Source of the DNA: Escherichia coli
GTDB taxonomy: Bacteria > Pseudomonadota > Gammaproteobacteria > Enterobacterales > Enterobacteriaceae
Reading direction: 5' to 3' (one strand)
Assembly: GCF_013122565.1 (NCBI RefSeq)
Contig: NZ_CP053258.1
DNA length: 64,000 bases
The position numbers and the translations under genes are program-made. The notes under the pieces are model-generated. The model worked only from the letters and a program-made list of their open reading frames with translations. It was not told where the DNA came from and ran no database searches. Every line of letters starts with the position of its first letter. The first letter of the stretch is position 1. Positions 53,813-56,235 of this stretch are shown piece after piece.

Positions 53813-53923
53813 TATCTCTCCGTGGCCCCGTTTGAAGAACCCAGGGGCCGCCTGCTAAACAATTAGTCTTTTTAGTGCATACCGCGCCGTAAATCCTCGC
53901 TCCGTGCGGACTGACCTCTTAAA

Positions 53924-54880
53924 TCAGGGGGCTAGTTGCGTGGTATAGTTGGCAGCGACCCAACGATAACCCTTGCTGTCGCTTTTAACATGCCCCAGGC
54001 CTGGGAATGAGATATGGGCTGCTGCCACCCAGTAACCACCCTGAGCCGCATGTTTTAATACTCGCTCACGGGTTTTTACCGCTTGCTGTTGATCCACATC
54101 GAAATGTATCGCCACGTGAGGATCCGGCATCTGCACTGCTTTGGCATGAATAATATCGCCCCACAACACTAGCGTCTGGCCTTCACTCTCCACTGTGTAC
54201 ATCACGCTACCAGGAGTATGGCCGGCCGTTGAGGTGGCTGCAATGCCTGCAATTACCGTTGCCGGTGCGATAAAGGTCTTCAGCTGACCTGCGTTGATCA
54301 CTGGGCGGATGGTCTGCTCCGATTCGACAAAGGTGTGCTTCTGACTATCTTCTACTTGCGAGGCATTCGCCGGATTAAGCCAGAAATCCGCATCTTTCTG
54401 CTCAACGAATACCTGGGCGTTAGGGAAAGCTGGTTTGCCCTGACGGGAGATGCCACCAGAGTGGTCGGCATGAATATGCGTCAGCAGCACGGCATCAATG
54501 GTTTCAGCCGGATAGCCAGCAGCTGCCAGGTTTTCAAGCAATTGGCCTCCATTGTTGCCAAACAGATCGCCCGCACCGGCATCAACCAACACGCGCTGCT
54601 GGCCATTATCAATAACAAATGCATTGATTGAAGTCTCCGTATGGGGTGTCAGTGAATCCTTTGCCAGTTGTTGGCGCAGTTTATCGGCAGGAATGTGGGT
54701 GAGTAATTTATCTAGCGGAATTGTCACCGTGCCGTCGGAGACAGCGGTAATACGTAGTTTGCCCAATATCATGCGGTAATAGCCCGGTGCTTGTGTATCA
54801 GGAGGGGGCACAGGTATAGGCGTTGCTAACGCATTTACGGAGAGTACCAGTGAGGTTACCAGAGTCAGCAAAAGTTTCAT
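53924..54880 (-). CDS. Secreted metallo-beta-lactamase-fold hydrolase, MPH-like (putative lactonase / phosphotriesterase-type enzyme)
   Basis: 318 aa ORF; N-terminal signal peptide MKLLLTLVTSLVLSVNALA; MBL motif THIHADHSGG (HxHxDH) plus downstream His/Asp ligand motifs AGHTPGS, WGDIIH, AAHISFPG; N-terminal APGYYRM...ITAVSDGTV region recalled as characteristic of methyl parathion hydrolase family; not present at this locus in K-12. Confidence 0.75.
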   Translation of the reverse strand: MKLLLTLVTSLVLSVNALATPIPVPPPDTQAPGYYRMILGKLRITAVSDGTVTIPLDKLLTHIPADKLRQQLAKDSLTPHTETSINAFVIDNGQQRVLVDAGAGDLFGNNGGQLLENLAAAGYPAETIDAVLLTHIHADHSGGISRQGKPAFPNAQVFVEQKDADFWLNPANASQVEDSQKHTFVESEQTIRPVINAGQLKTFIAPATVIAGIAATSTAGHTPGSVMYTVESEGQTLVLWGDIIHAKAVQMPDPHVAIHFDVDQQQAVKTRERVLKHAAQGGYWVAAAHISFPGLGHVKSDSKGYRWVAANYTTQLAP

Positions 54881-54890
54881 TCTATCCTCG

Positions 54891-54904
54891 ATAAGTTCTG
54901 TTAT
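54891..54904. promoter_or_regulatory. Candidate LysR-type regulator binding dyad in divergent promoter region
   Basis: ATAAGTTCTGTTAT (ATAA-N6-TTAT inverted repeat, T-N11-A-like) midway between the two divergent start codons. Confidence 0.3.
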
Positions 54905-54961
54905 TACAGTACGGGCACCAGTATCCTTTTGCGAATAACATCATTCAAATTGATTAATATA

Positions 54962-55906
54962 ATGAACTCTATCAGAGAAAATGATTTAAACCGGGTCGAC
55001 CTCAACCTGCTAATCGTGCTCCTGGTGCTACATCGAGAGGGGAGCGTTTCACGTGCAGCCAGCAAGTTACACTTGGGGCAGCCAGCAGTTAGTGGCGCGC
55101 TGGCACGGCTGAGAGAAATGTTTAACGACCCGTTATTTGTGCGCACGGCAAAGGGGATGGCACCGACACCACGTGCACAAGCTCTGGTTACGGCACTACT
55201 GCCGGTGATGGATCAAATGCAGCAGGTGATTTTTCAAAGGCCGGTTTTTACCCCAGAACAGGATCAGCATACGTTTCGCCTGGGGATGAGTGACTGGGTC
55301 GAACGCTGGCTGATGCCTGGAATGATGGCAGATATAGCCCAAATGGCACCCGGGATTCGCTTACAAGTCACGGCATCCGATCCTTTCCAGGATGGCGAAA
55401 AAGTGCAACAGGATAAGGTGGACGTAGCAATCTCCGTCGTGGAGCAGGTGCCCACCGGAGTGGAACGAGAAGTGATCACTCAAATGGGGTTTTGCACGAT
55501 GTGGCATCCGCTCCAGTTATCCCTCACTTCACCGTTAAGCCTTGATGTATATACTGAAACCGATCATCTTTTGGTCTCTTATCGCGGTGCCAGCAGTAGC
55601 TCTATCGATCTGATTTTGGCTGACTGCGGGCGTAAAAGGGAAGTGCGTTACGTCACGCCAAATTTCTCATCGTTACCGTTGATGTTGAGACAGATACCGG
55701 CTTTAGCGACCGTACCGCAGGGGCTGGCAGTAGGCTGGGTAGCCGATTATGGGTTGCAATTTGCCGATGTCCCACTCGAGGTTCCTGCTTTTACGCTCTC
55801 TCTACTCTGGAATAAGCGGCGTAATAATGATGAGGCGCTGCGCTGGTTACTGGAGAAATTACGCACACGAATGCAGGGCTGGGAGATGTTTTCAGAATGC
55901 GTTTGA
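54962..55906 (+). CDS. LysR-family transcriptional regulator
   Basis: ORF 54929..55906 (TTG) trimmed to ATG 54962; N-terminal HTH (VDLNLLIVLLVLHREGSVSRAASKLHLGQPAVSGALARLRE) and LysR substrate-binding domain; divergent from the MBL-fold gene. Confidence 0.8.
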   Translation: MNSIRENDLNRVDLNLLIVLLVLHREGSVSRAASKLHLGQPAVSGALARLREMFNDPLFVRTAKGMAPTPRAQALVTALLPVMDQMQQVIFQRPVFTPEQDQHTFRLGMSDWVERWLMPGMMADIAQMAPGIRLQVTASDPFQDGEKVQQDKVDVAISVVEQVPTGVEREVITQMGFCTMWHPLQLSLTSPLSLDVYTETDHLLVSYRGASSSSIDLILADCGRKREVRYVTPNFSSLPLMLRQIPALATVPQGLAVGWVADYGLQFADVPLEVPAFTLSLLWNKRRNNDEALRWLLEKLRTRMQGWEMFSECV

Positions 55907-56183
55907 AAACGTAAAAATGTGAACAGGAAATAAGGGCTTGCTAAATTAAATAACTCCTGTCAGATAATTTAGCGTATAGGTGCAATCGTGCCCTAATGGC
56001 CGTTAAACATGTCTTGCAGCTAATTGGGTTAATAAGTATTTGAATCGCTTTTCAGGATTAGTGAGTCGTATGAGGGAGCTGTGCTCTGTCACCATGTACC
56101 TGATATTATGTATTTTTTGTCAACCTTTAGGTTTACATTGTGATGGAATAATAGCGGGGGACGATCAAACTGAACCGTAATGA

Positions 56184-56218
56184 AGTGCTCAAAAGACATG
56201 AGCACTTTTCTTATTTTT
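56184..56218 (+). terminator. Orphan plus-strand intrinsic terminator in LysR-agaI spacer
   Basis: AGTGCTCAAAAGACATGAGCACT followed by TTTCTTATTTTT. Confidence 0.6.
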
Positions 56219-56235
56219 CCGGGCTAAGAGGGATG

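Follow-up and report, generated by a model that had tools for sequence, protein, structure and literature searches.

The nearest known systems to the enzyme described here are the reconstructed ancestor AncDHCH1 / Anc1-MPH (5HIF, 6C2C) and the extant dihydrocoumarin hydrolases (DHCHs) JsDHCH, BbDHCH and SmDHCH (Yang et al.). Extant and ancestral DHCHs hydrolyse dihydrocoumarin with a kcat/KM of at least 1e6 M-1 s-1 and organophosphates with less than 1e2 M-1 s-1 (bioRxiv 10.1101/504811). Five changes, namely l72R, the insertion S193, h258L, i271T and f273L, are necessary and sufficient to lead from a DHCH to methyl parathion hydrolase (MPH), and the two studies that describe them (Anderson et al., PMC8222346; Yang et al., bioRxiv 10.1101/504811) are the source of the five positions that we use below. 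In MPH itself D255 is the bridging carboxylate of the metal site and D151 hydrogen-bonds to the bridging hydroxide (PMC5052733).

Here we describe a related gene from Escherichia coli, which lies in a window of 64,000 nucleotides (the whole stretch of DNA that was analysed) and which is paired with a divergent gene for a LysR-family regulator. The reading that we prefer, and that we regard as reasonably probable, is that of a Sec-exported two-metal lactonase/aryl-esterase in the ancestral DHCH state, encoded by a LysR-controlled accessory cassette.

The hydrolase gene and its placement in the family

The coding sequence of the hydrolase precursor (53924..54880, minus strand, stop codon included) was delimited from the ORF list, the phmmer search of the PDB, the match to PF00753 and the RefSeq annotation; it starts with ATG and encodes a product of 318 aa assigned to the MPH/DHCH family. 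A Shine-Dalgarno sequence GAGGA (54885..54889, minus strand) can be read 4 nt before the ATG, and a comparison of the intergenic regions revealed a purine-rich element also in the leaders of the orthologues. In a 99.7% identical genome RefSeq names the product 'MBL fold metallo-hydrolase', and the exact protein belongs to a cluster of 230 members called 'MBL fold metallo-hydrolase [Escherichia coli]'. Because of its E-value of 1e-89 to a solved structure, the 230-member cluster and the RefSeq annotation, the reading frame is a real gene and not a chance ORF. A literature search by accession numbers found no mention of it, and no assay of any member of the enterobacterial clade was found in the searchable literature.

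Using phmmer against the PDB, the best match was AncDHCH1 / Anc1-MPH (5hif), the reconstructed lactonase ancestor, with 304 bits, an E-value of 1e-89 and 48% identity, followed by MPH (1p9e; 272 bits, 43% identity, full-length alignment), OPHC2 (4le6) and PoOPH (4o98) with about 246–247 bits, AbOPH (4xuk; 211 bits), LrsL (7y7u; 166 bits) and AidC (4zo2; 117 bits), and the B3 enzymes AIM-1 and L1 reached just about 26–30 bits. The alignments at 304, 272 and 247 bits span residues about 23–313, which amounts to full-length homology to solved MPH/DHCH-like members. Pfam gave the generic domain only (PF00753, Lactamase_B; E 8.8e-18, residues 82–273); this profile match and the matching structures with the alpha-beta/beta-alpha sandwich of the MBL fold place the protein in the metallo-beta-lactamase superfamily, and within it the hydrolase is a member of the MPH/DHCH branch. 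A further Pfam match to the Anti-Pycsar protein Apyc1 (E 3.8e-4, 39 residues around HxHxDH) was rejected as superfamily-level similarity only.

The predicted structure leads to the same group of enzymes. An AlphaFold2 model built on an alignment of 21 sequences (19 enterobacterial sequences, MPH and the ancestor) has a mean pLDDT of 82 and a pTM of 0.84, its poorest parts being the signal peptide and the stretch 241–260, an active-site loop with a pLDDT of about 61–63. Its best fold matches in Foldseek were 5hif, MPH, PoOPH, LrsL, AbOPH and AidC, in an order as by sequence, and the E-values to MPH/DHCH-like structures ranged from 1e-37 to 1e-27. The initial annotation, which was made from the letters without database searches, had suggested a resemblance to MPH-family enzymes, and both the sequence scores (304 and 272 bits) and the predicted fold bear this out. 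All motifs that it quoted (THIHADHSGG, AGHTPGS, WGDIIH, HFD and AAHISFPG) and both of its longer blocks (APGYYRM...ITAVSDGTV and SFPGLGH...KGYR...NY) are indeed present in the translation. It had also named two ways of checking the family, and both turned out in its favour: in a comparison with PF00753, MPH, AidC, AiiA and B3 enzymes MPH was far ahead of AidC and B3, and the top neighbours of the predicted structure are AncDHCH1 and the MPH group.

None of the NCBIfam equivalogs passes its cut-off, and their scores bear on two other readings of the gene. One is a subclass B3-like metallo-beta-lactamase that would add to beta-lactam resistance, for which the MBL fold, the HxHxDH motif, the predicted periplasmic targeting and a weak match to B3 models could be put forward. 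However, the B3 model (NF033105) reaches 44 of the 240 bits required by its cut-off, the named B3 families reach 20–30 bits where 400–675 are required, there is no B3 structure among the top 50 Foldseek matches of the model, and the hydrolase has an extra bridging Asp (D242) that is typical of lactonase/MPH-type centres. We find this reading hardly credible. An identity as beta-lactamase was rejected on the NCBIfam scores and the fold ranking, and beta-lactamase activity is very unlikely, in line with the low rank that had been given to beta-lactam hydrolysis from the beginning.

The other reading is quorum quenching: an exported N-acyl-homoserine-lactone (AHL) lactonase could destroy the AHLs of neighbouring bacteria before they arrive at SdiA, the presumed receptor in E. 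coli. The top NCBIfam model is that of the quorum-quenching lactonase AidB (NF047979, 202.3 bits), the AHL lactonases LrsL (34% identity) and AidC (25%) are clear relatives in sequence and fold, and AHL lactonases with a signal peptide such as MzmL and MomL do exist in the wider family. Nevertheless, the hydrolase stays short of every AHL-lactonase cut-off (360 bits for AidB; 68 against 425 for YtnP; 34 against 375 for AiiA), as it does for AttM (26 against 390), and the DHCH/MPH branch is much nearer with its 304 bits than LrsL with 166 or AidC with 117. We consider quorum quenching as the purpose of the enzyme to be unlikely. For EaAiiA, a lactonase from Erwinia amylovora, no link to the clade of the hydrolase was established; a later paper presents it as a homologue of AiiA.

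Export, metal site and specificity positions

Codons 1–19 (54824..54880, minus strand) encode a predicted Sec/SPase-I signal peptide, MKLLLTLVTSLVLSVNALA, with cleavage after A19 and TP as the next two residues. This call was rule-based, using the charge of the n-region, the h-region, small residues at -3/-1 and the lack of a lipobox and of a twin-arginine motif. The N-terminus shows an n-region with a charge of +1, a hydrophobic core with a mean Kyte-Doolittle value of 2.5 over a 10-residue window and an A-L-A site after residue 19, and both a Cys (lipobox) and twin arginine are absent from the signal-peptide region. The same pattern with variable letters was found in 19 out of 19 sequences (the query and 18 orthologues), so that the cleavable-looking signal peptide reported earlier is a predicted feature of the whole set. 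In the AlphaFold2 model the region forms a low-confidence N-terminal helix, and strong conservation starts at QAPGYYRM, near the start of the crystal chains of MPH and the ancestor. Judging from these features, Sec-dependent export to the periplasm is likely.

The mature enzyme (residues 20–318; 53927..54823, minus strand) was defined by mapping to MPH 1P9E and by invariance in the alignment. Aligned to the 1P9E numbering, H135, H137, D139 and H140 correspond to H147, H149, D151 and H152 of MPH, and H221, D242 and H289 to H234, D255 and H302. All seven metal ligands of MPH are retained and are invariant in the 21 aligned sequences, and the binuclear-metal motif HxHxDH proposed in the initial annotation thus belongs to a complete set of ligands. 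Its description of the later motifs as ligand-bearing holds in part: H221, D242 and H289 align as ligands, but the HFD block carries none, its H259 being opposite Gln272 of MPH in the alignment, and of the residues in WGDIIH only D242 is a ligand, whereas H245 is a specificity residue.

At the five positions that separate MPH from the DHCHs the query has L59, no insertion in the loop equivalent to position 193, H245, I258 and F260, which are all ancestral states. The alignment shows the same ancestral states in 18 of 18 enterobacterial orthologues; none of the derived MPH states (R72, the S193 insertion, L258, T271 and L273) was found in either the query or these 18 sequences. Since all five states are ancestral, the enzyme is predicted to be a DHCH-type lactonase/aryl-esterase and not a dedicated phosphotriesterase, and lactonase is the best-supported activity that can be predicted for it. 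As the identity to characterised DHCH/MPH enzymes is just 43–48%, pocket residues beyond the five could shift the substrate preference.

We take H250 and I263 of PoOPH to be equivalent to positions 258 and 271, that is to H245 and I258 of the query. The PoOPH double mutant H250I/I263W in the PDB title of 4o98 then points the same way as our reading of H245 and I258 as a lactonase state.

The pocket positions also bear on the idea that the product serves in pesticide detoxification, as an active hydrolase of organophosphates (methyl-parathion/paraoxon). Its attraction lies in the 43% identity to MPH over a full-length alignment, in one old GenBank record that labels a member of the 230-member cluster as 'methyl parathion hydrolase', and in the measurable promiscuous organophosphate activity of DHCH-type enzymes (bioRxiv 10.1101/504811). 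Against this, not one of the five derived specificity states is present, enzymes in the ancestral state are 100–1000-fold or more below MPH in their activity on organophosphates (bioRxiv 10.1101/504811), and the His at the 258-equivalent position is the very residue whose mutation (H250I) is part of turning PoOPH into a phosphotriesterase according to the 4o98 title. Membership in 'MPH proper' is ruled out by the lack of all five defining substitutions, a pesticide-detoxifying role seems very improbable to us, and we expect organophosphates to be hydrolysed weakly at best, as a side reaction. Of the class suggested in the initial annotation, lactonase and phosphotriesterase, the lactonase part, which it had ranked high, is supported by the ancestral pocket and by the best match to the DHCH/MPH branch; for organophosphates the proposal needs refinement.

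For the preferred lactonase/aryl-esterase we propose the following mode of action. After Sec export the hydrolase would reside in the periplasm with a two-metal (Zn-type) centre, where a metal-bound hydroxide would open the ring by attacking the carbonyl group of the lactone or aryl ester. Asp139 would assist this attack and Asp242 would bridge the two metals. The main activity would be the hydrolysis of lactones and aryl esters, dihydrocoumarin-like ones and possibly other lactones, and organophosphates would be turned over in a weak promiscuous side reaction only.

The LysR partner and the accessory segment

Head-to-head with the hydrolase gene lies the gene of a LysR-family regulator (54962..55906, plus strand, 314 aa), assigned from the RefSeq ATG and from LysR-type matches in NCBIfam, all of which are under their equivalog cut-offs (the best one, BsrA, with 197 bits against 480). 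The mechanical ORF list lets this gene begin at a TTG at 54929 (325 aa) instead of the RefSeq ATG at 54962. We favour the ATG because a conserved operator-like box falls inside the TTG extension (54929–54961), and with this start the intergenic region between the two genes measures 81 bp (54881–54961). The head-to-head pair was present in eight of eight genomic contexts, with flanking genes that are otherwise unrelated; besides the E. coli locus the contexts come from Enterobacter kobei, Pantoea agglomerans, Serratia proteamaculans, Serratia rubidaea and Cedecea neteri as well as from two metagenomic Enterobacteriaceae contigs, which carry the closest homologues (87–89% identity). The partner regulators have HTH_1 and LysR_substrate domains at all eight loci, and those from E. 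kobei, P. agglomerans and S. proteamaculans are orthologous with 57–64% identity.

Inside the intergenic region we found a dyad box, ATCAATTTGAATGAT (54940..54954; ATCA-N7-TGAT, which includes T-N11-A), as a candidate LysR binding site. In the E. coli window it lies upstream of both start codons, 66 bp from the ATG of the hydrolase gene and 7 bp from that of the LysR gene, and its consensus AATCAATT(T/G)G..TGAT recurs in eight of eight otherwise divergent intergenic regions from five or more genera, 60–76 bp upstream of the hydrolase ATG. A second element, GGATACTG (54919..54926, read towards the hydrolase gene), occurs in six of the eight regions and is degenerate in the two Serratia loci. 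The dyad box is likely an operator, and GGATACTG may be a promoter-associated site. A promoter scan gave 4 matches where 3.7 were expected from shuffling, which is not above chance, and no promoter is claimed; likewise, the 4 matches of a terminator scan were not above the shuffled expectation of 2.9. From the arrangement of the two genes and the conserved box we infer that the regulator binds the box and induces the hydrolase gene. The divergent LysR protein would probably control expression via the T-N11-A dyad in the 81-bp region, and would probably respond to the substrate or to a small molecule related to it.

Both genes and their spacers make up an accessory segment (53813..56235), which reaches from the rsmI stop to the agaI stop and was delimited by comparison with an empty-site E. 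coli genome: homology to this genome ends right after the rsmI stop and returns just before the agaI stop. The chromosomal neighbours are lpoA, yraN, diaA and rsmI on one side and agaI, agaD, agaC and agaB on the other. At least four alternatives occur in the rsmI–agaI gap, a hypervariable site of E. coli: an empty spacer of 49 bp, the fimbrial operon yraHIJK (K-12), a toxin-antitoxin pair (HTH plus RelE/ParE) and the MBL-LysR cassette. Among 5,426 complete genomes of E. coli, 63 (about 1.2%) carry the complete cassette, always on the chromosome, and 76–77 have any match to the segment; the carriers include O145:H28 STEC and O169:H41 (ETEC) strains. The cassette borders show neither convincing flanking repeats, direct or inverted, nor an IS, an integrase or other mobility genes, and the GC content of 52–55% is host-like except for the AT-richer right-hand spacer. 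No genes for the catabolism of lactone products lie beside the cassette in any of the contexts compared here, which counts against the preferred reading, and no catabolic genes are shared between the loci, the flanks being different in each genus. Taken together, LysR and hydrolase look like a self-contained accessory cassette of a regulator plus its target.

Some further observations concern the borders of the segment. The toxin-antitoxin variant and the cassette variant have short ends in common (8% of the query, 94–98% identity). The spacer of 330 bp after the LysR gene (55907–56235) has about 41% GC and a terminator-like hairpin at 56182–56208. In genomes of the O145:H28 type the cassette is matched only up to about 55960, and the annotation of the right flank is a PTS IIB gene, which means that carriers differ in their right border and in the aga genes next to it. 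On the other side, rsmI and the hydrolase gene converge on a spacer of 111 bp (53813–53923) with a hairpin GGCCCC-N14-GGGGCC, which lacks a T-run and may be a shared non-canonical terminator.

Outside of E. coli, orthologues with 65–82% identity are common in Enterobacterales, including Winslowiella, Erwinia, Pantoea, Enterobacter, Atlantibacter, Yokenella, Serratia and Cedecea, and the enterobacterial clade as a whole shows 65–89% identity to the query. The cassette, too, is widespread in this order, often in plant-associated members. In the plant-associated Erwinia rhapontici, E. persicina and Pantoea agglomerans the orthologues (77–82%) are located on plasmids of 100–590 kb. Such a plant-associated distribution is compatible with a plant-derived lactone as substrate, without being a proof of it. 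Remoter relatives are plentiful on plasmids of Rhizobium, Sinorhizobium and Agrobacterium, which is a further ecological hint at substrates from plants.

Significance and comparison with described systems

In terms of its family the enzyme is an ordinary, uncharacterised further member of a well-studied group that has a LysR partnership. The annotation 'MBL fold metallo-hydrolase' can now be sharpened to 'exported MPH/DHCH-family lactonase, LysR-linked', and neither methyl parathion hydrolase nor beta-lactamase is a suitable name for the hydrolase. If the prediction is true, some E. coli, including the food-borne O145:H28 and O169:H41, own an exported lactonase together with a sensor-regulator, which could change how they handle plant lactones, mycotoxin-type lactones and the AHL signals of other bacteria. 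A broader idea, which is speculative and in our view rather improbable, is that the cassette is an inducible periplasmic module for the degradation of signals or toxins, with native hydrolysis of AHLs or of plant or fungal lactones in the gut and on plants by a minority of E. coli lineages (STEC O145:H28 and ETEC O169:H41 among them), and that it is at the same time a natural reservoir only a few substitutions (e.g. H245L) away from an organophosphate hydrolase. Being a natural 'pre-MPH' genotype that is available in a tractable host, from a clade that is not known to have been sampled biochemically, the locus with its five ancestral states is also useful for testing how general the published adaptive landscape from DHCH to MPH is. 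Otherwise this is a routine refinement of an annotation, the value of which lies chiefly in the annotation itself and in the 'pre-MPH' genotype in E. coli.

Compared with the known systems, the hydrolase is most like AncDHCH1 and the DHCHs, with which it shares the best match in sequence and fold, the seven ligands and the five states L, no insertion, H, I and F. It differs from them in about half of its residues, in its origin from Enterobacterales, in carrying a native signal peptide and in being paired with a LysR regulator dedicated to it; also, the activity is a predicted one here. [quoted passage not shown] In contrast to MPH it is without R72, the S193 insertion, L258, T271 and L273, and since these five changes are absent a high phosphotriesterase activity is not expected. 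PoOPH, the lactonase from Pseudomonas oleovorans (4O98), and OPHC2 (4LE6) show about 37–40% identity and TM-scores of 0.84–0.89; they are farther from the query than DHCH and MPH and come from another host lineage, and PoOPH is a natural lactonase that becomes a phosphotriesterase only after H250I/I263W. LrsL (7Y7U), AidB (NF047979) and AidC (4ZO2) are alike in belonging to the wider family, in the fold (TM-scores of about 0.82–0.91) and in dizinc lactone chemistry, but the identity is only 34% to LrsL and 25% to AidC, and the query is under the AidB cut-off (202 against 360).
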